Shown: positions 1 to 42,396 of the stretch, in pieces
Numbering within the stretch: position 1 is the first letter of the stretch
Layout of the letters: each line of letters starts with the position of its first letter
Assembly: GCA_964394925.1 (NCBI GenBank)
Contig: CAYMZG010000005.1
Location: forward strand, 26,873 to 90,872
DNA: 64,000 bases
Direction of reading: 5' to 3'
DNA from: an uncultured Candidatus Saccharibacteria bacterium
GTDB taxonomy: Bacteria; Patescibacteriota; Saccharimonadia; Saccharimonadales; CAYLGV01
Made by a program: the position numbers and the translations under genes
Notes under the pieces: generated by a model
Databases searched by the model: none
What the model saw: the letters and a program-made list of their open reading frames with translations, nothing else
Told to the model about the DNA's origin: nothing

Positions 1-1
1 C

Positions 2-667
2 ACCGGTGGCATTGCTGGCATGCGCGCCAAAATAAAGTTCTTGCTGCATAGTTTGGTGGCAGTTGTTGGTGGCTGGTGGCTATTCGCTAAGCTCGGAGTC
101 GATACCATTAACCTCGGCTTTACTACGCTGTACGTTGGAGTGTTTATTGTGGCCATCTTCTGGTTTGTGGTGATCGCTACGGCCAATGCTGTTAATATCA
201 CCGACGGCCTTGATGGACTAGCGGGTGGTCTGTTGGCCTCCTCATTTGGGGTATACACCATTATTGCGGGGATAGAAGGGCAGTATGCTTTGGCCGGGTT
301 CTGCCTGGCGGTAGTGGGGGCGCTCCTCAGTTACACCTGGTTCAATATTTATCCGGCGCGCTTCTTTATGGGTGACGTTGGCTCGTTCGCTCTAGGCACA
401 GCACTGGGTATAATCGCCATTCAGACTAACACCATTTATGTACTACCAGTTATTGGTATCATTTATGTGGCCGAGACCGGTTCAGTGATTGTTAACCGTA
501 TGTCGAAGAAGCTTCGTCATGGCAAGAAAGTTTTCTTGTCATCACCGATTCACCATCACTTTGAGGCAATTGGTTGGCCAGAAACCAAAGTCACTATGCG
601 TTTTTGGATTATGGGTCAAGTAGCGAGCGTGATAGGCCTTATTATTTTCCTGCTTGGGAGGAAATAA
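2..667 (+). CDS. mraY: phospho-N-acetylmuramoyl-pentapeptide transferase MraY, N-terminus cut by window edge
   Basis: The frame is open from base 2. The translation has NAVNITDGLDGLA, FMGDVGS and PIHHHFE and is multi-TM. The stop abuts the next ATG (TAAATG). Confidence 0.9.
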   Translation, partial: TGGIAGMRAKIKFLLHSLVAVVGGWWLFAKLGVDTINLGFTTLYVGVFIVAIFWFVVIATANAVNITDGLDGLAGGLLASSFGVYTIIAGIEGQYALAGFCLAVVGALLSYTWFNIYPARFFMGDVGSFALGTALGIIAIQTNTIYVLPVIGIIYVAETGSVIVNRMSKKLRHGKKVFLSSPIHHHFEAIGWPETKVTMRFWIMGQVASVIGLIIFLLGRK

Positions 668-1927
668 ATGCGCCCGCGTTCAACGGCCCGCCGACAAGCA
701 GTCTACACCGATCAAACCGGGCAGCGACGCCATCGTCCGGACTATGTCTTAGTAATTCTATCGGCAGTTCTGCTGGTGATAGGCTTGATTGTCGTGTATG
801 CAATAAGCCCCGGGCTGGCCGCCCAGAAGCATGTTTCCGACGGCTATTTTGTAACCAAGCAGATAATAACTATAGTGCTTGGTGCGCTTAGTTTTGGGAT
901 CGTATCACAAGTTCCACTGTCGGTTTGGCGGCGCATGAGGATACCGCTGATCGTAATTGCGGTGATAGCAACCATGATTGCATTGGCTCTACCAGTGAGC
1001 CCGGAGTATCCGGCACACCGTTGGATTCGCTTGGGAGGACAATCATTGCAGTCGGTGGAGCTCATTAAATTTGCACTCGTTATTTGCTTATCATCTTTCC
1101 TGGCTGATCGCATAAAAGAGGGAACCATTCGCGATAGCAAAAAAACACTTCAGCCACTCATGATAGTTTTGGGTGTGATCGGCGTGATTGTGGCTGGCGC
1201 GCAGCGTGACCTTGGTTCAACCGGCGTACTTGTTGCCATGATGGCAGCCATGGCTTATGTGGCTGGGCTGCCCTTAAAGCGCGTGCTTATGATTGGTGGC
1301 ATTATTGCCATTGGTACCGTTCTGGCGGTCGCTTCTACAGGGTATCGACGTGATCGTGTTTTAACTTTTTTACATCCCGAACAGGATTGTCAGAATGCAG
1401 GCTACCAAGCTTGCCAAGCGCTTATTGCCGTTGGCTCGGGCGGTGTGATTGGCAAGGGTCTCAGCCATGGCGCGCAGGCGTACGGTTATCTGCCTGAGGC
1501 TTCGAACGACTCGATTTTTGCAATTATGGCCGAGAAGTTCGGCTTTGTGGGCGTGACGGTTCTGATTGCCTTGTTTATGGCCTTATTTACACGAATCAAA
1601 AACATCATGGAACGGGCGCCCGACGACTTTTCGCGTTTAATGGTAGCCGCTGTCTTGGCTTGGTTGAGCACGCAGACTGTTATTAATATTGGCGCCATGA
1701 TCGGGTTGCTGCCACTAAAAGGTATTACATTACCGTTTATCAGTGCAGGTGGTACAAGCGTAATATTCGTGACGGCTGCTCTTGGTTTGGTGTTCCAGGT
1801 ATCACGCTACACAACCTATGGTGTAGCCGAAGAATTGCAGACGCCCGATACTCAGCCAACGGCCCGTAAAACAACACAGCCCAATGAACGAAGGACTTAT
1901 GAGTACAACAGACCACGCAGCTCATAA
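668..1927 (+). CDS. ftsW: SEDS-family peptidoglycan glycosyltransferase / cell division protein FtsW
   Basis: Multi-TM protein with GQSLQSVELIKF, PEASNDSIFA and LPLKGITLPFISAGGTS. It lies between mraY and murG. Confidence 0.85.
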   Translation: MRPRSTARRQAVYTDQTGQRRHRPDYVLVILSAVLLVIGLIVVYAISPGLAAQKHVSDGYFVTKQIITIVLGALSFGIVSQVPLSVWRRMRIPLIVIAVIATMIALALPVSPEYPAHRWIRLGGQSLQSVELIKFALVICLSSFLADRIKEGTIRDSKKTLQPLMIVLGVIGVIVAGAQRDLGSTGVLVAMMAAMAYVAGLPLKRVLMIGGIIAIGTVLAVASTGYRRDRVLTFLHPEQDCQNAGYQACQALIAVGSGGVIGKGLSHGAQAYGYLPEASNDSIFAIMAEKFGFVGVTVLIALFMALFTRIKNIMERAPDDFSRLMVAAVLAWLSTQTVINIGAMIGLLPLKGITLPFISAGGTSVIFVTAALGLVFQVSRYTTYGVAEELQTPDTQPTARKTTQPNERRTYEYNRPRSS

Positions 1928-3074
1928 GCCCATCGTAGTATTAACAGGTGGTGGCACGGGCGGTCATATTACGCCCATTTTGGCGGTTGCCCACGAACTG
2001 AAACAGGCCTCCAGCCAACCAACGACAATTTACATTGGTGAGAAGGGCGGGGCATTCAAAGAGTTAACCGATACCAACCAGGATATTGATCAGAGTTACA
2101 GTATACGAGCAGGCAAGCTGCGACGTTATCACGGCGAATCGTGGCTTACCAGATTGTTTGACGTTAAGACGAACCTACTTAATCTTCGCGATTTATTTTA
2201 TGTACTTGCGGGCGCTTGGCAAGCTTGGCGTTTACTGGGCAAGATCAGGCCATCGGTCGTTTTTCTAAAAGGTGGCTTTGTAGGTGTGCCTGTTGGCATT
2301 GCGGCTGGCCTGCGAAAAATTCCCATTGTCACGCATGACTCGGATGTTATCCCCGGTCTTGCTAACAGATTAGTCAGCCGATGGGTGAACGTACATGCCA
2401 CCGCGCTACCAGCCAACATGTATGCATATCCGAAACACAAGGTTGTGCAAGTAGGGGTCTTGGTTGAGCACTCATATAAACACGTTTCGCCGACTGATGC
2501 TCGTGCATATCGTGAACAGCTTGGTTTACCGGCAGGTGCCCAGATAGTGCTCATTACTGGGGGGAGTTCGGGGGCACAGCGGCTTAATGAGGCGGTACGT
2601 CAGATGATGCCAAAACTTCTGTCGACTTTCGAAGACTTGCATGTGATACATCAAGTTGGCAAGGGCAAACAAGCCGTTTATGACGGCTACAAGCATGATC
2701 GATTGCAAGTATTGGAATTCTTGCGACCAATGTATTTGTACATGGGGGCTGCTGATGTGGTCGTAGCCCGCGCAAGCGGTAATACAATTGCAGAGCTTGG
2801 CGTGCAAGGCAAAGCTAGTATCGTGGTGCCCAGCCCATTTTTAACCGGTGGCCATCAGCTCGAAAACGCGAAGCGCCTGCAGCAGCAGGGGGTTGCGCTG
2901 GTAGTGCAAGAGGCTGATATGTTAAGCGATACCACTGGCTTATTGCCAAGTATAGCGATGTTGTTGCGTGACGAAACCCAGCGAGACAAGCTGGCCAAGG
3001 CGCTGCACAAAGAAGCGATTACCGATGCTGCGGCTCGACTTAGCAAGGTTTTGCTAGAACAGGTGAGTTCATAG
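1884..3074 (+). CDS. murG: UDP-N-acetylglucosamine--N-acetylmuramyl-(pentapeptide) pyrophosphoryl-undecaprenol GlcNAc transferase MurG
   Basis: GGGTGGHITP G-loop, GGSSGAQ and GGHQLENA motifs. An alternative ATG lies at 1899. The gene overlaps the ftsW 3' end. Confidence 0.9.
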   Translation: MNEGLMSTTDHAAHKPIVVLTGGGTGGHITPILAVAHELKQASSQPTTIYIGEKGGAFKELTDTNQDIDQSYSIRAGKLRRYHGESWLTRLFDVKTNLLNLRDLFYVLAGAWQAWRLLGKIRPSVVFLKGGFVGVPVGIAAGLRKIPIVTHDSDVIPGLANRLVSRWVNVHATALPANMYAYPKHKVVQVGVLVEHSYKHVSPTDARAYREQLGLPAGAQIVLITGGSSGAQRLNEAVRQMMPKLLSTFEDLHVIHQVGKGKQAVYDGYKHDRLQVLEFLRPMYLYMGAADVVVARASGNTIAELGVQGKASIVVPSPFLTGGHQLENAKRLQQQGVALVVQEADMLSDTTGLLPSIAMLLRDETQRDKLAKALHKEAITDAAARLSKVLLEQVSS

Positions 3075-3992
3075 ATGTTTCGGCGAAAGAAACAAACACC
3101 AGACAGCTCACCGCAGCGCCGATCGCCAAACGGTAGTGGTCCGCCAGTCTTTTCCTATTACGCCAGAGCCGGATCGAATACTGGGCAGAATGTCGGTCGA
3201 AGCGTAGAACGTGAAGAAGCCAAGCCTGAGCGCCGTACGATACGTTCACGAATCGGTAGTCTACCATCGGTGCTTGCACTGTTGTTTATGTTTGCAATCA
3301 TCTTCTATTCACTTTGGATCCAGCCATCGCCAAAGGTCGTTGTATTGGCCCAGCAGGGTACAATTTATCAAGACACAACAGCCTACCAGAAGGCTATACA
3401 TAATGCGTGGTCATCGCGCTTTGGCAATCAGTTCAAGATGAGTGTTGATGCAGAAGCACTAGAGAAGCAAATTGCCACTGCAGTACCAGATGTGGCCGCT
3501 GTGCAGGTTCAGTTGCCATTGCTCGGTCGAAAGCCTACGGTCGTATTGACCCCAGGAAAGCCCGCGCTCGAACTCATTACTACAAATGGTGGATTCTTTG
3601 TTGATAAGTCGGGCAAAGTGATGGCACGTAGTAGCGATGTAAAACAGAACCAACTCCAAAACGTGCCAACCGTACAAGACGAATCAGGCATCAAGGCTGA
3701 ACCTGGTAAAACTATACTTACGGTAGAACAAGCATCTTTTATACAGAGCCTCGCACGCCAACTGGCCGCCGAAGGCTTAAGCGTGCAGTCGATGTCATTG
3801 CCATCAAATGCCGCCAACCAAGTAGATGTGCGTATTAATGGCCAGAATTACTATATTAAGTTTGCTACAACAGGGGAGGCACGCCAGGCGGTCGGAACAT
3901 ACCTTGCTGCCAGGTCAAAATTTGCAGCCGAGGGTATTGCTCCTGCAGAGTATGTCGATGTACGGATCGACGAGAAAGTATTCTACAAGTAA
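3075..3992 (+). CDS. ftsQ: FtsQ/DivIB-like cell division protein
   Basis: Starts directly after murG (TAGATG junction). It has a basic N-terminus, one TM segment (LPSVLALLFMFAIIFYSLWI) and an extracytoplasmic domain. The family call rests mostly on context. Confidence 0.55.
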   Translation: MFRRKKQTPDSSPQRRSPNGSGPPVFSYYARAGSNTGQNVGRSVEREEAKPERRTIRSRIGSLPSVLALLFMFAIIFYSLWIQPSPKVVVLAQQGTIYQDTTAYQKAIHNAWSSRFGNQFKMSVDAEALEKQIATAVPDVAAVQVQLPLLGRKPTVVLTPGKPALELITTNGGFFVDKSGKVMARSSDVKQNQLQNVPTVQDESGIKAEPGKTILTVEQASFIQSLARQLAAEGLSVQSMSLPSNAANQVDVRINGQNYYIKFATTGEARQAVGTYLAARSKFAAEGIAPAEYVDVRIDEKVFYK

Positions 3993-4073
3993 TCACCCCT
4001 ATTCCACTCCCCGCTAGTTCGCAAATTGTTCATGTATTTGTATTCTCAAAAAAACTATACAAACATACAAAAG

Positions 4074-4188
4074 TAGGGGAATGTCAAAAAAACATATATA
4101 AACTAACAGAATAGGGGAAAGTCAAATAAATTGGCCAGGATCCATGAAAAAGTAAATGTTTTCACGACATTGCTGTGGAAAAGTCAAA
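4074..4188. repeat. three direct copies of a 15-nt motif T[A/G][G/T]GGAA[T/A]GTCAAA in an AT-rich spacer
   Basis: Copies at 4074-4088, 4112-4126 and 4174-4188. They lie inside a 560-bp ORF-free AT-rich gap between convergent genes. Confidence 0.35.
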
Positions 4189-4576
4189 CTTTGACAATTA
4201 TCACAACAAGCACTTCCGTGGTTGGCGAAAGTAACCGCGAATAAAATAACACGGTGCGTATATAACAGGTGTTAGTCGTGCTTAAACTTACGTAATGATG
4301 CCGCCAAGCCAAAATAGTCCCCTGTAGGGCCATATAGACATTCAACCTATAATACTAATTACCGCGTCGCAAAATATACATTGTGCGACATCTTTGTGTG
4401 TTCGCAATGTGGTCTCCTGCTGCGTTATCATAATTGGCTTTTTGATCTGGTTTTCTTGTATTTATGTACATGTACATTATCTTTACCTACTCTGCTTGCA
4501 TCGGTTGATTTTTCTTCCTCAGGATGATTGTTATTTCCAACATTCTTGATGATTAAAATGTTCGCAAAATGTACGT

Positions 4577-5392
4577 TTACTTGTAGATTATTTCAATGAT
4601 TCTTGGATAGGTATCTGCTTGTTTCTCACTTTCTAAGGCGCGTTTTTCCATCGGTAAATGATTATAGAGCCAGTAGTGCGTTGGCGCTCCTATTGTTCTA
4701 CTTAAGGCTGCTCTTCTTTCGCTTGTACCCATACATGCGCTGATAGCACAGGCTACAGCAACTATGCCAGCCGAACGTTTGTAATTACGACGCAAGAGTA
4801 CGTTTGTGAGAGCTGCAGTGCATACTGCGCCCAAAAGAGGGGCGGTATTCACGCCCGTTTCGGCAAGCGGCATGAAGAAACTTCTAAGAACTGTGTCAGT
4901 GGTGTTAAGAATCTTTTTATACCAATCTGCGGTGTGCTGAAGTTCGTGTACAGCGGTTAATTGAAGGTCTTCTGGTTCATATATCCCCGAAATTTCTGCG
5001 GCTACTTCTGTGACATCAATCGCAGTTTCGCTGGTCTTAAAGCTGTCCCTAACCATTTCGTGATAGCGTTCCTCAAGCTTCGGATAAAACGCTATTACAT
5101 CCAGGCCGCCACCTAAGGATACTTCAACATGTACACCATCATCTTCTTCCTCTGTTGGGCCGGTAATTCCTTGTGTGACACAATCTTCATTAATAAAGCG
5201 ATCATCGTGCACGAGTTCGAAGTGGAGTCTACCTGAGCTTCCAGGGTTTAAGGTGTCCAGTATTTCCGAAATAGCCTCAGGCTTAACTTCGATGGAGGCT
5301 ATCTCTGGATGCCTGTCGACAACTTGTTTAAGTTGAATATCACAGCTTAAACTTACTTCCCACCCCTGAGAAGGCTTGGCGTGAGGCGACAT
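4577..5392 (-). CDS. hypothetical membrane protein with HExxH motif (putative zinc metallopeptidase-like)
   Basis: 271-aa ORF with AVHELQHTADW (HExxH) followed by two hydrophobic segments. It sits 6 nt downstream of the preceding gene on the same strand. Confidence 0.55.
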   Translation of the reverse strand: MSPHAKPSQGWEVSLSCDIQLKQVVDRHPEIASIEVKPEAISEILDTLNPGSSGRLHFELVHDDRFINEDCVTQGITGPTEEEDDGVHVEVSLGGGLDVIAFYPKLEERYHEMVRDSFKTSETAIDVTEVAAEISGIYEPEDLQLTAVHELQHTADWYKKILNTTDTVLRSFFMPLAETGVNTAPLLGAVCTAALTNVLLRRNYKRSAGIVAVACAISACMGTSERRAALSRTIGAPTHYWLYNHLPMEKRALESEKQADTYPRIIEIIYK

Positions 5393-5398
5393 GGATGA

Positions 5399-6430
5399 TT
5401 ATTCTGCGAGAGCGTAAGTAGCTTTAGCCACGCGCTTAAACTGTGGCTTGCCCTGGAGATTCAATAAAATAGTGGTTTCTTTGACGTAGCGGCTCTTAAG
5501 CACTTCTTTAACGATCTCGTCGCGGTGCATTGGCTTGCCTGACTTCTTGAGAACGTCGCTGATAACGTCGGCCACGGTGCCTTTTTCGTAGCCCCATTCC
5601 TTGAGGGCGTAAATGCCACGACCAATGAGTACGAAGCGCTTATCTTTGATAAGTTCGTTATGGATGGCCTGAGTGGTCACATCTTTGCGCTTAAAGTCAG
5701 AGTCTTTAATAGCAGCGGCAATTTCGTTAAAGTGCATCTGCTTGCCATTTTCTTTGAGAATAACGTAGATTTTGTCGCGAATGTTCTTAGGATTGACCAT
5801 GGGCCACTTTACAAGGCCCCAGCGGCCATTAAGGGTAGCCAGTTGCTTGCTGGTGCTCGCAAGGGCTTGCGCGTGCTTTACGCTATCCATCTTGGCTTCT
5901 GTGGCGATGGCATCAATGCTGGTCGGCTCACCAATTGCTTTTACGGCGGCGATAATCTGCTCCACGAGCTTCTTAATCTTCTTCTCATCATGAACAGCAG
6001 CAAGACCCACGCTGTGGAAGTAATAGTCGTTATCGTCGATAACTACCAGCTTTGGTGCCAGTTGTGCTAAGAAGGAGATACGTGCCTGGTCAAGTCGACT
6101 ATTCTCTTTGCTGAAGTGTGAGCTGAGCTCGCTAACGCGTGCTACATTTCCCATGTTGCCAAGAAGTTCTACGAGGGCATCTTGAACCATTTCGATGTGT
6201 GGTAGCTGACCGGCGGTTGCATTCGTCTTAAGGCGTACAATGACGGCTTTTTCGAGTTGGCGGACACGTTCACGGGTGATACCAAGGAGTTCCCCGATTT
6301 GCTCAAGTGTTTCTTTGCGATCAAACAAGCCAAAACGACGTGCGATGATTTCCCGTTCTCGCTCCCTATCAATGGTGGCAAGTACGTCGGTGATAATCTT
6401 TTCTATCTGTAGTTTAGCTGTTTCAGGCAT
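5399..6430 (-). CDS. sigma-70 region-4-like HTH protein with C-terminal winged-helix (HARE-HTH-like) repeats
   Basis: The N-terminus, IARRFGL...TLEQIGELLGITRERVRQLEKAVIVRL, resembles sigma-70 region 4.2. The C-terminal segments HFNEIAAAI...RFVLIGRGIYALKEW and MHRDEIVKEVL resemble HARE-HTH (inference). Confidence 0.6.
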   Translation of the reverse strand: MPETAKLQIEKIITDVLATIDREREREIIARRFGLFDRKETLEQIGELLGITRERVRQLEKAVIVRLKTNATAGQLPHIEMVQDALVELLGNMGNVARVSELSSHFSKENSRLDQARISFLAQLAPKLVVIDDNDYYFHSVGLAAVHDEKKIKKLVEQIIAAVKAIGEPTSIDAIATEAKMDSVKHAQALASTSKQLATLNGRWGLVKWPMVNPKNIRDKIYVILKENGKQMHFNEIAAAIKDSDFKRKDVTTQAIHNELIKDKRFVLIGRGIYALKEWGYEKGTVADVISDVLKKSGKPMHRDEIVKEVLKSRYVKETTILLNLQGKPQFKRVAKATYALAE

Positions 6431-6668
6431 CGGTAGTCTGTCCTTCCCTACCCTTAAATACTATAGAAATCTTATATAATTGTAAAACATATGAACAAAA
6501 AGTCAATACATTTATGATATAAAGTACAATTTTATGCATTTACATGCTTTGCAAACATATTTTAGCATGAAATAGACTACTGTGCCTGAATTGTGATGTA
6601 GAAATATCACCGTAAAACAACTTGCAACCTGTGCAACTTGTGGATAAACCTATGTGATGCGTGCAAAC

Positions 6669-8954
6669 TTACTTGGACTTGCGGCGAATGACGCGTTTCT
6701 TCTTATCAGGGGCTTTGTCGATGAGGGCTTTGGCGTCGGCCTCTGTTAATGTCTTGGGGTCAGTGGCTTTCGGTATGCGGGCGTTCTTCTTGCCGTTGGT
6801 AACATACGGGCCATACGGGCCATTCACAATACTGATGCCGCTGTCGAACTGTGCAATGTACTTGTTGGCTTCTTTTTCGAGCTTGGTGGCGTAGAGCTCG
6901 CGGGCCTCTTCTTCGGTAATCTTCATGGGGTCATGCGGTTTGATAGATACATAGAGCTTGCCGACCTGCACATAAGGCCCAAAGCGACCGATGTTGGCTT
7001 TCATATCTTGGCCATCTTCGGTTTTGCCAACCAAACGAGGCAGCTTGAACATTTCCAGGGCTTCTTCAAGTGTAATGGTGGTAAGCTGGGCCCCATCTGG
7101 CATGGGGGCAAAATCTGGCTTTTCTTCGCTTTCGGTTTCACCGCGCTGCAACATTGGTCCAAAACGACCATAACGGGCCATGATTGGCTTGCCGTTGCTG
7201 GGATCGTGCCCCAGGAGGCGGGCCTGGCTTGTTTCCTCGCGGCTCACGTTGGCCGAGGCTTCGATCAGCGGGTGGAAATCTTTATAAAAACCCGCCAGCA
7301 TGGTTTGCCACGCTTCCTTACCTTCGGCAATATCGTCAAATTCTTGCTCAACATTGGCGGTAAAGTCGTAGTCCAGGATATGCGCAAAGTGTTTCACAAG
7401 GAAATCAGTGGTTACTTCAGCCACAGGGGTGGGTAGCAGCTTGGAGCGGTCGGCGCCGTAGTTTTCTTCCTCGGTGGTGGTAGTTATGCTGTCCTTCTCG
7501 AGCGTTAGGCGTGTAACGTTACGGGTGGCGGCTTCGATGTCGGCTTTTTCAATGTAGCCGCGGCTCTGAATGGTGCTGATCGTTGGTGCATAGGTACTTG
7601 GTCGGCCAATGCCGAGCTCTTCGAGCTTGCGAACTAAGCTAGCTTCGCTGTAGCGCGCTGGTGGCCGGCTGAACGTCTCAGTGGCGGTCATGCGTTTGAG
7701 ATCGAGGGTTTGTCCTTGAGTGAGCGGCGGTAATATAGTGTCGTCCTTGCTGCCACCATACACCTTATAAAAACCATCGAAGCGCAGAATTTCACCCTTG
7801 GCAGCAAAGGTCTCTGTGCGGTTGCTCATGGCGATGGTAACATCGGTGCGGCTCACTTCAGCGGCGGCCATTTGGCTGGCCAGCGCGCGCCGCCAGATGA
7901 GGTTGTATAGCTTCTTTTGCTGTTCATCGGCGCCAGCGGCAGTGGTTTCGAAATTGGTGGGGCGAATGGCTTCGTGGGCTTCTTGGGCACTACTGTTTTT
8001 GGTCTTGTACTGGCGGACCTGGTGGTATTCTTTGCCATAGGTTTTGGCAATGTAAGTTTCGGCCGCTTTAATGGCCTGCCCAGATAACACCGTGCTGTCA
8101 GTACGCATATAGGTGATCTGACCACTTTCGTATAAGCGTTGGGCCAGTGTCATGGTTTGCTTAACACTAAAGCCTAAGCGTCGCGAGGCCTCTTGCTGGA
8201 GCGTACTGGTAGTGAATGGTGCCGAGGGATTGCGACTGCCTGGTTTGAGCGAGATATCTGACACGGTGTAGGCTGCGTCTTTGGCATCGTTCAGGAACTT
8301 CTCGGTATTTGCTTGATCTTCAAACCGCACACTGAGCTCGGCATCGAGCTCTGATCCGTCTGCAAGGAAGGTGCCAATTACTTTGTAGTCGCTGGTGCTT
8401 TCAAAGGCTTTGATTTCGCGTTCACGTTCAACAATGAGGCGAACGGCGACTGATTGCACTCGCCCGGCGGATAGACCGGTACGGACCTTTTTCCAGAGCA
8501 CGGGGCTGAGTTCATAGCCTACCAAACGGTCCAGGATGCGACGAGCTTGCTGGGCATCAACCAGCTTAAGGTCAACCGTGCGGGGCTTGGCAACAGCGTT
8601 CTCGATAGCCGGCTTAGTAATCTCATGAAACACAATGCGCTTGGTTTTCTCTGGGTCAAGATCAAGTGCCATGCAGAGGTGCCAGGCAATCGCCTCTCCT
8701 TCGCGGTCTTCATCGCTGGCGAGCCAAACGGTAGCATCCTTGGCGGCGGTCTTTAGCTCTTTTATGACCTTCTTTTTGTCGGCAGGAATTTCGTAGGTAG
8801 GCTGAAAACCCTTCTCAACATCAATGCTAATGCCTTTTTTAGGGAGGTCGCGGATGTGTCCAAAGCTGCTTTTAACGGTGTAGTCCTTGCCCAAGAACTT
8901 CTCTATGGTCTTGGCTTTGGCCGGACTTTCCACGATTACTAGGTTTTTTGCCAT
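6669..8954 (-). CDS. topA: DNA topoisomerase I
   Basis: Toprim N-terminus LVIVESPAKAKTI, active-site region GQITYMRTDS, 761 aa. Confidence 0.95.
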   Translation of the reverse strand: MAKNLVIVESPAKAKTIEKFLGKDYTVKSSFGHIRDLPKKGISIDVEKGFQPTYEIPADKKKVIKELKTAAKDATVWLASDEDREGEAIAWHLCMALDLDPEKTKRIVFHEITKPAIENAVAKPRTVDLKLVDAQQARRILDRLVGYELSPVLWKKVRTGLSAGRVQSVAVRLIVEREREIKAFESTSDYKVIGTFLADGSELDAELSVRFEDQANTEKFLNDAKDAAYTVSDISLKPGSRNPSAPFTTSTLQQEASRRLGFSVKQTMTLAQRLYESGQITYMRTDSTVLSGQAIKAAETYIAKTYGKEYHQVRQYKTKNSSAQEAHEAIRPTNFETTAAGADEQQKKLYNLIWRRALASQMAAAEVSRTDVTIAMSNRTETFAAKGEILRFDGFYKVYGGSKDDTILPPLTQGQTLDLKRMTATETFSRPPARYSEASLVRKLEELGIGRPSTYAPTISTIQSRGYIEKADIEAATRNVTRLTLEKDSITTTTEEENYGADRSKLLPTPVAEVTTDFLVKHFAHILDYDFTANVEQEFDDIAEGKEAWQTMLAGFYKDFHPLIEASANVSREETSQARLLGHDPSNGKPIMARYGRFGPMLQRGETESEEKPDFAPMPDGAQLTTITLEEALEMFKLPRLVGKTEDGQDMKANIGRFGPYVQVGKLYVSIKPHDPMKITEEEARELYATKLEKEANKYIAQFDSGISIVNGPYGPYVTNGKKNARIPKATDPKTLTEADAKALIDKAPDKKKRVIRRKSK

Positions 8955-9040: not shown

Positions 9041-9110
9041 GGAGTTCGGAAAGCCGCCAATGGAATAATTGTTCTTGGCTTTCCTCCGGCAAGAATAGCC
9101 GAGCCTCCGC
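9041..9110. repeat. conserved 70-nt intergenic element, copy 1 (upstream of topA)
   Basis: Aligns without gaps to 10931-11000 with 54/70 identities. Hairpin GGAAAGCC (9048-9055) / GGCTTTCC (9077-9084). Confidence 0.7.
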
Positions 9111-9317: not shown

Positions 9318-9917
9318 TTATGTTGTTCGGAGGTGGCGAAACTTCCGTCCTTTCAGCCCTTTGCCTTTTGGATCGATCACGCTGGCGATGTTTTCGAGAA
9401 GTTCAACAGCGTAGTTGCCGACGACCTCTTCGGTATGTGCCATAAGCTTCGTCTCGGTTTTAATAAATCGTTCGTCCATCCGCCCTTCGAATGATGCAAA
9501 GCGTTCAGCTACTTGCCCTTGAAATGATATAAATCGTTCATCCATTTGTTTTTGAGCAGATGTAAATCGTTCGTCCATTCGTTGTTCGAGAGATTTGAAT
9601 CGTTCATCTGCTTGTTGCTCAAATGATGCAAAGCGTTGATCCATCCCTTGCTCAAATGATGCAAAGCGATTCTCTGTACGCTCTTCAAGTCTGTCGACCT
9701 TGTTGTCGAGCTTATCAATACGGTCATTAACACGATTTTCAAGTGAATGCAGCTCATCACGGATGAGCTCGGTGTGTGCCTTCAAGAGTAACTGCATATC
9801 ACCCTGGACGTCTTTACGTACATCTATACGTAAATCTCTACGTAAATCTTTATATAGCTTCCCTAAAGCCGTTGCCAGGTCATCTTTTGTTAGATAGTCA
9901 GGCTGTTTGTTACCCAT
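9318..9917 (-). CDS. coiled-coil protein with seven tandem 11-residue repeats
   Basis: Repeats: NRFASFEQGMD / QRFASFEQQAD / ERFKSLEQRMD / ERFTSAQKQMD / ERFISFQGQVA / ERFASFEGRMD / ERFIKTETKLM. Confidence 0.7.
   Translation of the reverse strand: MGNKQPDYLTKDDLATALGKLYKDLRRDLRIDVRKDVQGDMQLLLKAHTELIRDELHSLENRVNDRIDKLDNKVDRLEERTENRFASFEQGMDQRFASFEQQADERFKSLEQRMDERFTSAQKQMDERFISFQGQVAERFASFEGRMDERFIKTETKLMAHTEEVVGNYAVELLENIASVIDPKGKGLKGRKFRHLRTT
9465..9695 (-). repeat. 7 x 33-bp in-frame tandem repeat inside the CDS
   Basis: A 33-bp periodicity (AAATCGTTCGTCCAT...) is visible in the DNA. It encodes the 11-mer repeats. Confidence 0.8.
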
Positions 9918-9961: not shown

Positions 9962-10822
9962 TTACCGAAGCCCCCACTGGCCACCGCCCAGACCGCGAAT
10001 CTTACCGGTGAGCTCAAGCATAGTAAGTGTTTGATTAAAGGTTGCGGCGCTAAGATCGCTCCGAACTTGCAATTCGTTGATATCCGAAACACCTTGGGCA
10101 ACAAGTTGTATGAGTGAGGATTCCTCTGGGCTATCGCCCACGGGTAAATGTTGTTGTTTGCTGGTAGAGATACCGAGTGCTGCAAGTATGTCAGAAGCGC
10201 TGGTAACGGCTATGGCACCGTCTTTTAACAGATTATTGGTGCCAACACTGGTTGTGCTGTTGATATTGCCCGGGACGGCCATAACCGTTTTGCCCATATC
10301 AAGTGCAAATCGCACCGTGTGCATTGTGCCCGATTTGAGAGCTGCCTCTGTAATGAGTAACGCGTCACCCAAGGCAGCGACCATACGGTTCCGTTCTATG
10401 AACTGATGTTTCATGGCCGGTTCCCCAAGCCCGTATTCACTGATAATACAACCCCCGTTCAACAAAATTTGCTGGGCTAAAGCCGTATGATTACGGGGGT
10501 GGATTCGATCGAGGCCAGCCGCCAAAACGGCAATAGTACAACCATTAGCCTCAAGGGCTGCACGGTGTGCCAGCGCGTCAACACCAAGTGCTAAACCGCT
10601 TACAATGGCCACGCCCGCTTCTGCTACTTCCCGAACTAAACGACTGGTAACATCGCGGCCATACGCTGAAACGGCTCGCGTTCCCACGACACTCAATCGC
10701 GGTCCATCACTCAGAGTTGCCAGATTACCTTGAGCATATATGCCTGAAGGAGGATCAAACAGCTGTTCAAACACTTCAGGATAATCTGGATCTGAGCGTT
10801 GGATATAGTGTAGATTTTCCAT
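9962..10822 (-). CDS. dprA: DNA processing protein DprA
   Basis: GLALGVDALAHRAAL and VLAAGLDRIHP motifs. The start was moved to MENLHYIQ (ATG 10822), which follows AGTGGTGGGACT. The longer track ORF reads through the non-coding repeat. Confidence 0.9.
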   Translation of the reverse strand: MENLHYIQRSDPDYPEVFEQLFDPPSGIYAQGNLATLSDGPRLSVVGTRAVSAYGRDVTSRLVREVAEAGVAIVSGLALGVDALAHRAALEANGCTIAVLAAGLDRIHPRNHTALAQQILLNGGCIISEYGLGEPAMKHQFIERNRMVAALGDALLITEAALKSGTMHTVRFALDMGKTVMAVPGNINSTTSVGTNNLLKDGAIAVTSASDILAALGISTSKQQHLPVGDSPEESSLIQLVAQGVSDINELQVRSDLSAATFNQTLTMLELTGKIRGLGGGQWGLR

Positions 10823-10930
10823 AGTCCCACCACTATACGAAAAAGTTATTAACAGATTATTAAGCTTTGCAAATTCTACAATACATTCTTGCAATAAAAT
10901 GGCCATCGGCTGGTTATGTACCAGCTCGTC

Positions 10931-11000
10931 AGGGTTCAGGAAGCCGCCAAAAGAACAATTATTCTTGGCTTCCTTCCGGCAATATAAGCCGAGCCCCTGA
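10931..11000. repeat. conserved 70-nt intergenic element, copy 2 (upstream of dprA)
   Basis: Partner of 9041-9110. Hairpin AGGAAGCC (10938-10945) / GGCTTCCT (10967-10974). Confidence 0.7.
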
Positions 11001-11060
11001 CAAACCAGTACATAACCAACCAAGATATATTTGTTTATTGCACGAAGTTATATTTTAGTA

Positions 11061-11089
11061 TTGACATTATGTACTGCTTTTGCTAAAAT
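11061..11089 (+). promoter_or_regulatory. near-consensus sigma-70-type promoter with extended -10
   Basis: TTGACA (11061-11066), 17-nt spacer ending in TGc, TAAAAT (11084-11089). Confidence 0.65.
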
Positions 11090-11095
11090 TGCAAT

Positions 11096-11479
11096 TCGTA
11101 AGTCATACATAGACTTATGTACCTTATACCCCTATTCTAACTATTGTTAGATTGTTTTAGAGCGTGCCATCCTAAGTTGTTACCCTCCACTTATCTTGGT
11201 TGCCTGTTCAAAAATTCGAATAAGCAGCGCTCTAAGACATACTAACCCCTTTAACTAACCCCCGTTGTGGTTTCGTACCCCTCGGCAGTTCAAAGCGAGC
11301 CCAGAAAGGTATCCGTGGCAACGCGGTGGCACGGCACTTTAAGGAGTTTTGGTGCGCGATGCTTCGCTGGGTGGGTTGAAGGGTATTTTTACCGGCACAA
11401 CGGGTGTTCCTTGGAATGCAGTGATTGTGCCATGAAATCGGTCTACAGCGGTGCCCACCCCCTCTGTAGGCCGTTTTTA
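11096..11479 (+). ncRNA. candidate structured non-coding RNA or long leader, class not recognised
   Basis: Lies between the strong promoter and an intrinsic terminator with no credible ORF. Long-range helices at 11157-11164/11228-11235 and 11261-11269/11396-11404. Confidence 0.4.
11439..11479 (+). terminator. intrinsic terminator
   Basis: CGGTCTACAG ... CTGTAGGCCG stem (one G-U pair) followed by TTTTT. Confidence 0.7.
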
Positions 11480-11508
11480 TTTAAAACCATGAGATAATTT
11501 ACTTACGT

Positions 11509-12060
11509 ATGGCTAAAGATACACTCAACGTTTTGCAATGCGCCCCAGACCCCCTGGTGGCTGAATTTGCGGATAAAATTGCCGTTTTTTCACCCATGCG
11601 GATTCTTGATGCTGGTTCTTCCTTTGGTCGGAATGCATTGTATTTGGCGAGTTGCGGCCATGAAGTTCACGCGCTAGATGCTAACCTACAAGATTTACGG
11701 GAGGCTCGACAAGGTGCTAATGGCAACCTACATGTCATTGCCGGGGATATTCGTAATCTGCCGCTTCGACCAGTGTTCGATGCGGTGACGATGAACTATG
11801 TTTTGCATGAATTACCGGCAGCCGATCGCTATGCAACCGTGGAGGGGCTCCAGGCCGTGACTCGACCGATGGGTTTGCATGCGATTAGTGGGTATGTTGG
11901 CGATGGCGGCAACGCCCTTCGCTCCAATCAGCTGTATGAATGGTATGCCAAGTCTGGTTGGTATATTGCAAGCTATGATGAACAAGTACTACCTACTCAA
12001 ACCCATGCCGGGAAGACATTACTCAGCTCTTGGGCCAGAATAATCGCGGTTAAACGATAA
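11509..12060 (+). CDS. class I SAM-dependent methyltransferase
   Basis: ILDAGSSFGRN (motif I-like) and VTMNYVLHEL. 183 aa. Confidence 0.75.
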   Translation: MAKDTLNVLQCAPDPLVAEFADKIAVFSPMRILDAGSSFGRNALYLASCGHEVHALDANLQDLREARQGANGNLHVIAGDIRNLPLRPVFDAVTMNYVLHELPAADRYATVEGLQAVTRPMGLHAISGYVGDGGNALRSNQLYEWYAKSGWYIASYDEQVLPTQTHAGKTLLSSWARIIAVKR

Positions 12061-18436: not shown

Positions 18437-18512
18437 GAGTTACCCTCGTTAAATCGTGCTAATGCTTTATGGTGTTCAGTGTAGCATATCTGGCCAGTGG
18501 TGAATAGTAACT

Positions 18513-42267: not shown

Positions 42268-42308
42268 CAATGTTTATATCCCAGCCTTCGGCTGAGCTAC
42301 AAACATTG
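42268..42308 (-). terminator. hairpin beginning inside the tRNA CCA
   Basis: Minus strand: CAATGTTT...CAGCC-GAA-GGCTG...AAACATTG. Confidence 0.45.
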
Positions 42309-42396
42309 GCGGAGGGAGAGGGATTCGAACCCTCGATACCCTTTCGAGTAAACCCGCGTTCCAGGCGAGCGCCATAAACCACTAGGCGACCCCTCC
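42307..42396 (-). tRNA. tRNA-Ser (anticodon GGA), long variable arm, CCA encoded
   Basis: Acceptor GGAGGGG/TCCCTCC, anticodon arm CTCGC-CTGGAAC-GCGGG, T arm GAGGG-TTCGAAT-CCCTC. Confidence 0.9.

Follow-up and report, generated by a model that had tools for sequence, protein, structure and literature searches.

The locus considered here raises the question of what is encoded by the stretch between dprA and a SAM-dependent methyltransferase gene in a 64,000-nt piece of Saccharibacteria DNA, which was analysed as a whole and is called the window below. The original prediction had left two readings side by side, an unclassified structured RNA or a riboswitch-like leader of the methyltransferase gene. 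Our analysis led us to conclude with high confidence that the stretch is a gene in its own right for a conserved, structured RNA of a new family and not a leader, and we consider it rather probable that the fuller statement also holds, namely that this new RNA gene acts in trans as a folded scaffold with a proposed pseudoknot and a recognition surface.

The whole transcription unit with its promoter occupies window positions 11061-11482 on the plus strand and would give a transcript of about 385 nt, both RNA ends being deduced from the positions of promoter and terminator only. The RNA gene is present in one copy in the window. The near-consensus promoter that had been read at 11061-11089 was confirmed, TTGACA-17 nt-TGcTAAAAT scoring 11/12 against the consensus with the extended TG present, and TTGACA was found 5' of the RNA in nearly all of 135 loci. 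The terminator stem CGGTCTACAG/CTGTAGGCCG at 11439-11473, followed by T5, was also as predicted; it was overlooked by the consensus scan solely owing to its 15-nt loop, and the stem was 99.7% paired with changes on both sides at nine of its ten pairs. The unit folded better than its shuffled versions (MFE z = -4.9). The prediction that the unit carries no credible ORF stood as well, since the 76-aa frame is closed in most homologues by a stop 3-5 codons from an invariant loop motif; no conserved ORF was found within the RNA gene across homologues, and the small-protein reading was rejected.

The search among relatives that the original prediction had called for, made here by nhmmer and by a pattern scan, recovered the RNA from about 100 lineages. 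The same RNA in the same position was found in 12 of the 12 distinct Saccharibacteria loci that were reached via DprA homologues 51-70% identical, with nhmmer E-values of 1e-110 to 1e-21 for the eleven complete loci and two weaker partial matches (E about 1e-9) for L013, which is truncated and carries an insertion. Scanning the genome collection with DprA gave one locus only, and the other loci came from the protein-hit route. A pattern scan for the RNA alone added at least 120 further metagenome contigs, and 100 representatives were kept after filtering to less than 95% identity. Nearly all of these contigs carry the promoter and the terminal motif, both of which lie outside the search pattern, while P3 and L3a are constant in the metagenome matches partly because that pattern demands it, the unbiased sample being the 12 loci. 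In the material sampled, the RNA family is restricted to Saccharibacteria (Saccharimonadales). The RNA measures roughly 265-600 nt in relatives in comparison to about 385 nt in the window. The core strands P2, P3 and P4 and the unpaired J1/2, L3a, J3/4, UGG and L10 are almost invariant, and this core is nearly unchanged while the neighbouring DprA has diverged to about 50% identity. The peripheral helices are free to vary in sequence and length and tolerate large insertions.

Covariation supports about 12 helices across the RNA, and the unconstrained MFE fold of the window sequence matches the covariation model; the features are collected in Table 1. The 5' domain, consisting of P1, P2 and a three-way junction of P3, P3a and P3b, was evaluated in an alignment of 62 sequences. 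The results showed that 91.3% of cells were paired in comparison to 28-50% in slid controls, that 12 of 30 pairs had changes on both sides, and that the observed values were reached by none of 500 shuffles on four of five measures and by one of 500 on the fifth, further pair types. The originally noted pairing of TTAGAGCG with CGCTCTAA proved to be part of the 12-bp helix P3, paired in all 62 sequences within the limit set by the search pattern. In relatives, the P2 loop may carry as much as about 200 nt of inserted sequence, and a hairpin of varying sequence and length occupies the position of P3b. The L3a loop is identical in 11 of the 12 loci reached through DprA, L013 having CCCCCC instead of CCCUCC. 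A likeness of GUUUUAGAGC to a Cas9 repeat:anti-repeat was judged a coincidence, with no cas or IscB gene near and a conserved hairpin, not a guide, as the preceding segment.

In the 3' domain, P4 encloses P5, P6x/P6 and a four-way junction with P6a, P7 and P8, followed by the optional P9 and by P10. In an alignment of 73 sequences, 95.6% of cells were paired in comparison to 34-54% in slid controls, changes on both sides were observed at 25 of 40 pairs, and none of 500 shuffles reached the observed value on any of the five measures. P4 carries compensatory variants at both ends: pair 9 is C-G or G-C in the 73 sequences and A-U in L013, and in the L055 group pair 1 is G-C. Another candidate partner of the P4 3' strand, CCCC-GA-UUCAA before P6, was considered and rejected, as it could pair in most sequences but ignores the P4 variants. 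The P6x helix CCCC/GGGG was 84% paired with both-side changes at three of four pairs; one group of relatives, read by eye, has an alternative P6x, CCCGG/CCG(N)GG. The sequence GUGGG is present in 100 of 100 3' domains, beside P4 in 90 and elsewhere in the remaining 10, and could base-pair with CCCAC in the terminal loop, to which it is complementary. The core GGUGCCCACCCCCUC of that loop, L10, is the same in all 73 sequences and lies outside the search pattern.

Some of the helices originally proposed for this domain were not retained. The long-range helix CCCGTTGTG/CACAACGGG is present in the window but is not a conserved structure, the 9-nt match being found in the window only, while the other 46 representatives have matches of 4-7 nt and the shuffled mean is about 5. 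In L002, the closest relative in the alignment of loci reached through DprA, eight of the nine pairs are kept (alignment read by eye). The helices nested within it, TACCC/GGGTA, TTCAA/TTGAA and CCCAG/CTGGG, clash with the covarying P4 and P6, and their strand GGGTTGAAGGGTA is assigned by covariation to CCCTTTAAC at 11247-11255, the 5' strand of P4. The hairpin GGCACAA/TTGTGCC (P9) does have counterparts in many relatives, but the mutually exclusive helices built on it are specific to the lineage of the window.

Table 1. Position and support of the RNA gene, its structural elements and the adjoining genes in the window
Feature	Position	Strand	Observation
dprA, divergent neighbour	9965..10822	-	Pfam DNA_processg_A, E = 5e-71
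-35 hexamer TTGACA	11061..11066	+	GTATTGACA unvaried across the 12 loci reached via DprA
Extended -10 TGcTAAAAT	11081..11089	+	TTGnTAnnAT kept across the 12 loci reached via DprA
RNA gene	11096..11482	+	Inferred start about 7 nt past -10, end at terminator U-run; nhmmer matches at every related locus
P1 hairpin CGUAAGUC/GACUUAUG	11097..11119	+	Both-side changes at 7/8 pairs, 62 sequences
J1/2, single strand (Y)ACCUUAYAC then C-run	11120..11135	+	Conserved
P2 hairpin UCUAAC/GUUAGA	11136..11151	+	99.7% of cells paired; changes wobble-compatible
P3 5' strand UGUUUUAGAGCG	11153..11164	+	100% paired to 11228-11239; compensatory changes at two inner pairs
P3a hairpin	11173..11193	+	Stem covaries at 3/4 pairs; 13-nt loop UUGUUACCCUCCA (L3a, 11177-11189)
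P3b variable hairpin of P3 three-way junction	11202..11225	+	MFE fold
P3 3' strand CGCUCUAAGACA	11228..11239	+	Partner of 11153-11164
J3/4, ACUAAC	11240..11246	+	Conserved in relatives
P4 5' strand CCCUUUAAC, 9-bp long-range helix	11247..11255	+	100% paired in 73 sequences
Variable P5 hairpin and P6x 5' strand (C-run)	11256..11293	+	Window fold, covariation
P6 AGCGA (11294-98)/UCGCU (11364-68)	11294..11368	+	96% paired; closes four-way junction
P6a	11299-11310	+	93% paired
P7, GCAA loop	11312-11327	+	Four-way junction arm
P8 arm	11329-11362	+	92% paired; both-side changes at 7/9 pairs (GCA/UGC, ACA/UGU, GCG/CGC)
G-rich junction GGGUGG (P6x 3' strand, then UGG)	11369..11374	+	Conserved GUGGG
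P4 3' strand GUUGAAGGG	11375..11383	+	Covariation
P9 optional hairpin GGCACAA/UUGUGCC	11394..11431	+	Hairpin in many relatives, none in others
P10 terminal hairpin and U-run, intrinsic terminator	11439..11478	+	15-nt loop CGGUGCCCACCCCCU at 11449-11463
Class I SAM-methyltransferase gene, lineage-specific insertion	11509..12060	+	Pfam Methyltransf_25/11

The genomic neighbourhood distinguishes an RNA gene from a leader. On the upstream side, dprA is divergent from the RNA in 71 of the 71 loci with a DprA match, and the RNA keeps its position where dprA is missing and topA is the neighbour. Downstream, where 87 related loci had enough sequence for counting, pth lies on the opposite strand in 78, about 20 nt away at the tightest, and a match to the methyltransferase was found near the RNA in one locus only (33% identical, counted irrespective of strand). 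Because pth is convergent in most loci and the methyltransferase is peculiar to this genome, and because the position of the RNA holds even with topA in place of dprA, we regard the RNA as trans-acting rather than as a leader.

How such an RNA might work can be proposed from the pattern of conservation. The RNA has a near-consensus sigma-70 promoter and an intrinsic terminator to itself. It would act in trans as a compact scaffold, and the role we consider most likely is that of the folded core in a ribonucleoprotein, or of a recognition scaffold of another kind. A scaffold with displayed loops is suggested because the invariant blocks lie in loops and junctions while the helices covary, because GUGGG is kept in every 3' domain and relocated where it is missing beside P4, and because J1/2 and L3a lack a conserved internal complement across the homologous RNAs. 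The terminal-loop CCCACC would dock on the GGUGGG junction beside P4, and the resulting pseudoknot would anchor the 3' hairpin on the core, although both sequences are invariant and no compensatory change can therefore support the pairing. The pyrimidine-rich J1/2 (YACCUUAYAC and the C-run) and L3a UUGUUACCCUCCA may form a recognition surface for a conserved partner, which could be a protein or a G-rich RNA. Our leading guess for the process served is the translation apparatus. The more specific idea of a housekeeping-grade RNA, present throughout the environmental Saccharibacteria sampled, conserved to about the depth of RNase P RNA or tmRNA and forming a new ribozyme or ribonucleoprotein core that works on the translation apparatus, is offered tentatively as a less likely possibility. 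The loops resemble the anti-Shine-Dalgarno tail of 16S rRNA and, going by the universal 16S sequence, are also complementary to GUAACAAGGU near the 16S 3' end (h44), no 16S rRNA being present in the related loci collected. The lineage of the window seems to use mostly leaderless mRNAs.

The C-rich loops also invite another explanation, in which the RNA is a base-pairing regulator whose anti-Shine-Dalgarno-like loops would repress several mRNAs by pairing with their G-rich ribosome-binding sites; we consider this rather unlikely. The elements concerned would be L3a with CCUCC, L10 with CACCCCCU in comparison to CACCUCCU of 16S rRNA, and the C-run of J1/2. RNAIII and RsaE/RoxS of S. aureus repress mRNAs by means of C-rich loops that bind ribosome-binding sites, and the new RNA resembles them in having such motifs in hairpin loops, the terminator loop included, with L3a UUGUUACCCUCCA and L10 CGGUGCCCACCCCCU both closed by covarying stems; with RNAIII it also shares a large size and many hairpins. 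Single sites in the window, at 18439(-), 41176(-), 63192(-), 51463(-) and 27844(-), are complementary over 8-9 nt just upstream of a start codon. However, over 642 translation starts the enrichment was 2-6 fold on about five counts and no better than that of Shine-Dalgarno words or the reversed-loop control, giving no specific enrichment for the C-rich loops. In addition, Shine-Dalgarno use looks minor in these genomes and -10-like words dominate upstream of starts; L10 is probably paired inside the RNA, and the L3a loop of L013 departs from CCCUCC. The depth of conservation and the 12-helix fold go beyond the needs of known base-pairing sRNAs, and in comparison to RNAIII and RsaE/RoxS the new RNA shows no homology, is far more deeply conserved, is built from long-range helices and multi-way junctions where they string hairpins together, and gives no specific signal of G-rich sites at starts.

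It is less likely again that the molecule is a ribozyme or a protein-free RNA, along the lines of the self-assembling ornate RNAs ROOL and GOLLD. Invariant junctions with a variable periphery are typical of catalytic or architecturally constrained RNAs. The new RNA combines such junctions with peripheral helices that vary freely, and it has a long-range helix and probably a pseudoknot, while the self-complementary G-run and C-run motifs could pair between molecules. Against this, no similarity to any Rfam ribozyme family was detected, and the loci showed no association with phages or tRNA clusters, one contig having a mobile element alongside.

The orphan large structured bacterial ncRNAs OLE, raiA, ROOL and GOLLD are a close likeness in kind, being lineage-restricted, several hundred nucleotides long and rich in covarying helices with near-invariant junctions and loops, and being stand-alone genes revealed by comparative sequence analysis whose neighbours give no function. 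The new RNA differs from them in its host clade (Saccharibacteria/CPR) and architecture and in being fixed between pth and dprA/topA instead of lying in phage, tRNA or stress-gene contexts, and their Rfam models gave no match, whether the gathering score was applied or E was allowed to rise to 10. The descriptive features of that class are nevertheless all present, i.e., more than 250 nt, many covarying helices, invariant junctions, a stand-alone gene and a context silent on function.

A strongly diverged universal RNA (RNase P RNA, tmRNA, SRP RNA or 6S RNA) missed by the Rfam models is improbable, even though size and depth of conservation fit. A P4-like long-range helix around a cruciform junction recalls RNase P, only 2 ncRNAs are annotated by PGAP in one complete Saccharibacteria genome (PMC8830319), and CPR RNase P RNAs often score under the Rfam cut-offs, in a study that scanned for the single family with a very low bit score (PMC8172020). 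In our scans with Rfam 15 at the gathering threshold, the whole window gave only 3 tRNAs, and permissive scans (E up to 10) of the RNA region and 20 diverse homologues gave only chance microRNA or leader matches, with none to RF00010 or RF00011, so that the unclassified status survives the Rfam search that the original prediction had named as a refuting test. The originally reported absence of RNase P, tmRNA and SRP signatures was borne out by motif searches over 100 homologues, which returned only sporadic chance matches: near-matches to RNase P CR-I (GAGGAAAGUCC) and CR-V (ACAGAAnnCGGCUUA) lay in variable regions at no conserved place, and SRP domain IV (GGAA/AGCA) was seen in 2 of the 100, always within variable regions and with no Rfam match. 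ARAGORN found no tmRNA in the window or in 136 sequences, and no conserved T-arm or tag reading frame was found among the homologues. The complementarity between the two ends is 3-6 nt, which is chance level, both ends being local hairpins; the RNA thus lacks the 5'/3' closing stem, and with its branched multi-domain fold and no match to RF00013 it is unlike 6S RNA. The likeness to type A RNase P RNA extends to size, a long-range helix enclosing a cruciform four-way junction, conservation mostly in junctions and expandable peripheral helices, but the new RNA has no CR-I/CR-V, bulged-U P4 or P1/P2 end pairing, and its long-range helix appears to have the opposite strand polarity relative to the junction, an order unreachable by circular permutation. 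It resembles tmRNA in size, in the strength of its dedicated promoter and terminator and in probably having a pseudoknot, but lacks the tRNA-like domain, the CCA-ended acceptor and the tag frame. No description of the RNA was found in the literature on ncRNAs and structured RNAs of Saccharibacteria, Patescibacteria and CPR.

Conservation at the DNA level, with the transcript functionless and the site kept as dprA/topA promoter architecture, a supercoiling-generating divergent unit or a recombination site, is very improbable. In more than 30 loci, a spacing of exactly 17 nt separates the dprA start codon from the RNA -35, a -35-like TTGCAA of dprA overlaps the RNA start, and topA, a supercoiling-sensitive gene in other bacteria, is always downstream of the RNA/dprA divergence point in the loci compared; but compensatory changes in about 37 pairs over 400 nt indicate selection on RNA pairing and not on DNA sequence, and the conserved blocks, among them the terminator loop, stretch 300-400 nt away from the dprA promoter. 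The overlapping dprA promoter could account for some of the 5'-end conservation.

Least credible of all is a cis-regulatory leader or riboswitch that controls the methyltransferase through terminator read-through, as its terminator 30 nt before the ATG on the same strand and an alternative 9-bp helix in the window have to be weighed against the weak methyltransferase counterpart (33%, 1/87 loci), the opposite-strand pth in 78/87, the restriction of the helix CCCGUUGUG/CACAACGGG to the window among 47 representatives, and a constitutive terminator hairpin, its stem intact everywhere and its loop invariant, with no conserved antiterminator-type platform. Synteny refutes the leader reading as a property of the family, and it could survive at most as a secondary use in this one genome.

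In general, the conservation and covariation across about 100 lineages back the unclassified structured RNA of the original prediction, and the gene, which matches no described RNA family, appears to define a new RNA family of Saccharibacteria. Saccharibacteria live as ultrasmall epibionts, have genomes of about 1 Mb and keep few regulators. To our knowledge, RNA classes this large and complex are rarely discovered. HEARO is the guide RNA of IscB, OLE forms a membrane ribonucleoprotein, and ROOL and GOLLD are RNA cages, i.e., earlier large RNA classes proved to be parts of unexpected machines. One transcriptome paper presents Saccharibacteria as being without validated small RNAs. An RNA of about 300-450 nt kept in place across more than 100 lineages must serve something that the cells cannot lose. 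For annotation, the family provides a new marker gene and accounts for the 400-700 bp that recurrently look "empty" upstream of dprA/topA. Culture and transformation of Saccharibacteria are now possible, and the function may be directly testable, provided that cultured strains carry the RNA gene.

A 686-nt gap separates dprA from the following + strand gene, and the sequence from promoter to terminator (385 nt) folds with a z-score of -4.9 in comparison to dinucleotide shuffles, the unconstrained minimum free energy structure of the window sequence giving the same architecture as the covariation model. The promoter, the terminator and the P3 and P9 helices of the original prediction were all borne out; the terminator was missed by the consensus scan because its hairpin loop is 15 nt long. 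That the unit holds no credible ORF also stood, as the frame of the 76-aa ORF in the window is stopped 3 to 5 codons from the invariant loop motif in most homologues, and the longest ATG ORFs of the homologues (median 33 codons) lie at varying positions. Judged from sequence, the gene product is an RNA and not a protein.

Features of the RNA gene and its neighbours (window coordinates; paired percentages and compensatory pairs refer to the homologue alignments)
Feature	Position	Strand	Observation
dprA	start placed at ATG 10822	-	GGTGG precedes the start codon
Promoter TTGACA-17-TGcTAAAAT	11061-11089	+	consensus scan 11/12, extended TG
P1	11097-11119	+	7/8 pairs compensatory
J1/2		+	invariant unpaired, (Y)ACCUUAYAC and C-run
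P2	11136-11151	+	99.7% paired; loop insertions reach about 200 nt
P3	11153-11164 with 11228-11239	+	100% paired (62 sequences)
P3a	11173-11193	+	3/4 pairs compensatory
L3a		+	invariant unpaired, UUGUUACCCUCCA; exception L013, CCCCCC
J3/4		+	invariant unpaired, ACUAAC
P4, long-range	11247-11255 with 11375-11383	+	100% paired
P6x, C-run with G-run		+	84% paired
P6	11294-98 with 11364-68	+	96% paired
P6a	11299-11310	+	93% paired
P8 arm	11329-11362	+	92% paired; e.g. GCA/UGC, ACA/UGU, GCG/CGC
UGG	between P6x and P4	+	invariant unpaired
P10	11439-11473	+	99.7% paired; 9/10 pairs compensatory
L10	15-nt loop of terminator hairpin	+	invariant unpaired, CGGUGCCCACCCCCU
Terminator hairpin CGGTCTACAG/CTGTAGGCCG, then T5	11439-11473	+	direct reading of sequence
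Class I SAM-methyltransferase gene, 183 aa	11509-12060	+	next gene beyond the gap

The DprA scan of representative genomes returned one related locus, L001 (DprA 53% identical), where nhmmer aligned the entire unit including the promoter (E = 5.6e-37) and where the unit is also divergent from dprA. Homologues of DprA place the organism in Saccharibacteria/Saccharimonadales; the contigs of ten of these homologues (51-70% identity) all have the RNA immediately upstream of dprA, and it is present in 12 of the 12 distinct loci reached through DprA, a sample that is unbiased as to RNA sequence. A search pattern that combined the P3 5' strand with loop L3a, both of them conserved in the RNA, matched one contig of IMG/VR and at least 120 from metagenomes, and among the latter the constancy of these two blocks is imposed by the pattern; in nearly all matched contigs TTGACA is present upstream (at 85-325 nt) and GGTGCCCACCCCC downstream (at 147-358 nt), both of which lie outside the pattern. 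Of the 115 complete copies (329-684 nt, -35 through end), 106 are distinct in sequence, and 100 representatives share less than 95% identity. Large lineage-specific insertions extend the P2 loop by ~200 nt, the interior of P3 by ~190 nt and P9 by ~150 nt, and leave the core blocks unaltered (L011 about 2730-2903; L013, a truncated DprA-route locus, about 260-417; L075 3' domain).

For the 5' domain, 62 sequences were aligned by MAFFT and fitted to no structure; 91.3% of cells were paired in comparison to 28-50% with partners slid 1-3 columns, changes on both sides occurred in 12 of 30 pairs, and the observed value was reached by none of 500 shuffles on four measures and by one on the fifth (further pair types). 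For the 3' domain (73 sequences), 95.6% of cells were paired in comparison to 34-54% when slid, both sides changed in 25 of 40 pairs, and on all five measures each of the 500 shuffles stayed short of the observed value. P4 carries compensatory variants at both ends, namely GCCUUUAAC/GUUGAAGGC in a group of compact RNAs, CCCUUUAAG/CUUAAAGGG in another group of homologues and CCCUUUAAA/UUUGAAGGG in L013. P6 closes a four-way junction of P6a, P7 and P8, while P3b, P5, P7 and P9 are variable or optional among homologues, and in a ~265-nt lineage we read a small pseudoknot-like module in place of most of the inner 3' domain. Two sets of pairings proposed earlier were wrong or are specific to this lineage: the 9-bp helix CCCGUUGUG/CACAACGGG occurs only in the window, the other 46 representatives tested showing chance-level complementarity, and the three pairings nested in it compete with the covarying P4 and P6. 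CUAAC occurs twice, at 11137-11141 (P2 5' strand) and 11242-11246 (J3/4), with GUUAG complementary to both, and the C-run and UUCAA before P6 (11277-11293) form a possible second partner for the P4 3' strand; a conformational switch or an ancient internal duplication might lie behind these conserved alternatives.

A DprA match was found in 71 of the 95 loci with enough upstream sequence, with dprA divergent from the RNA in all 71. For the other 24 loci, a divergent topA was read directly in about 17 (including L034, L043, L049, L055, L067, L088, L125 and L134) and no clear divergent gene was seen in the available sequence of the remainder; the position of the RNA is maintained in loci that lack dprA. 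Downstream, a convergent pth was found in 78 of the 87 loci with enough sequence, and a weak methyltransferase match near the RNA in only one, which removes the suggested tie to the methyltransferase. The order is therefore fixed as der-pth, the RNA on the opposite strand and dprA-topA, and the RNA is a separate gene and the leader of nothing. The modal spacing from the RNA -35 to the dprA ATG is 17 nt, exact in more than 30 loci, and a -35-like TTGCAA for dprA falls on the first transcribed bases of the RNA (window 11061-11096, equivalents in L001-L069). The two divergent promoters would overlap completely, with RNA polymerase on one at a time, and the dprA leader would be very short and without a Shine-Dalgarno sequence.

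This arrangement is loosened in the window by two insertions, the methyltransferase gene and a hairpin-forming repeat element at 10908-11021. A 62-nt sequence is present in two copies at 82% identity (9044-9105 and 10934-10995), the latter flanked by 27-nt inverted arms (10908-10934 / 10995-11021), and the whole is apparently a small repeat element, able to form a hairpin, that entered the space separating dprA from the RNA promoter and widened it to 240 nt, in comparison to 17 nt in most relatives. At L015 (IMGVR_UViG_3300049064_000004, 1-6700), the promoter side of the RNA holds Dam-/Dcm-type DNA methylases, an FtsK/PD-(D/E)XK protein and a RecT-like protein in place of dprA, apparently because a mobile element or prophage inserted beside the RNA gene.

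GUGGG, the complement of CCCAC in L10, is present in 100 of 100 3' domains, beside P4 in 90 and elsewhere in the other 10. We read the two as a loop-junction pseudoknot, in which both sides are invariant, so that compensatory change cannot prove the pairing. A conserved complement of J1/2 and L3a was sought within the RNA and none was found.

L10 (CACCCCCU) and L3a (CCUCC) are similar to the anti-Shine-Dalgarno sequence of 16S rRNA, and complementary sites were therefore searched for at translation starts in ~0.9 Mb of Saccharibacteria sequence. The results showed no excess over canonical Shine-Dalgarno words or a reversed control, so that a regulator pairing through C-rich loops stays a rival only, and a rather unlikely one. 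The best single candidate mRNA target, if the RNA has any, is the start region of a repeat-protein gene (9926-9899, - strand), where GGGGUAUA complements J1/2 and AUGGGUAACAAAC complements 9 nt of L3a. The gene (9318-9917, - strand) encodes 199 aa with six tandem 33-nt units at 9465-9668 giving an 11-residue repeat (MDERFxSFEQx-like), and its sole Pfam match, Apolipoprotein-like, is weak and sub-threshold. Upstream of 503 long ORFs in the same loci (-20 to -4), the top 5-mers are -10-like (ATACT 13.7-fold, TATAC, ATAAT) and Shine-Dalgarno-like words are a minority. This dominance of -10-like words close to the start codons suggests many leaderless or very short-leader mRNAs in these Saccharibacteria. 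Junctions and loops that stay unchanged, combined with peripheral helices that are free to expand, are the pattern of RNP cores and ribozymes, and simple base-pairing sRNAs do not have it. A ribozyme or self-assembling RNA would share this pattern and is, in our estimate, improbable.

A strongly diverged known RNA is a very improbable reading, and RNase P was weighed specially because CPR RNase P RNAs escape Rfam cut-offs (PMC8172020) and the PGAP annotation of a complete Saccharibacteria genome has only two ncRNAs (PMC8830319), but its catalytic-core sequences are missing here and the strand order of the long-range helix, taken relative to the junction inside it, is the opposite one, a difference that would be beyond explanation by circular permutation. 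RNase P CR-I/CR-V, SRP domain IV and the tmRNA T-arm were absent as conserved features of the homologues searched, ARAGORN found no tmRNA, and pairing sought between the 5' and 3' ends was not found. At gathering score Rfam 15 gave three tRNAs and nothing else in the whole window, and up to E = 10 nothing relevant in the RNA region or 20 diverse homologues, in agreement with the original prediction that the RNA is unclassified. The tRNA genes (window 20464, 36039 and 42307-42396, and several other loci) encode the 3' CCA. According to TM7x transcriptome papers, validated small RNAs are lacking, and no description of this RNA was found in the literature searched in full text. We rate the family as new; the RNA classes described so far include no detectable relative of it.

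Taken together, the RNA is stand-alone, strongly promoted and terminated, and highly structured, and purifying selection acts strongly on its pairing as well as on its loop sequence. It probably acts in trans as a folded scaffold, in which L10 would lock onto the RNA core and J1/2 and L3a would be left free to recognise a conserved partner.
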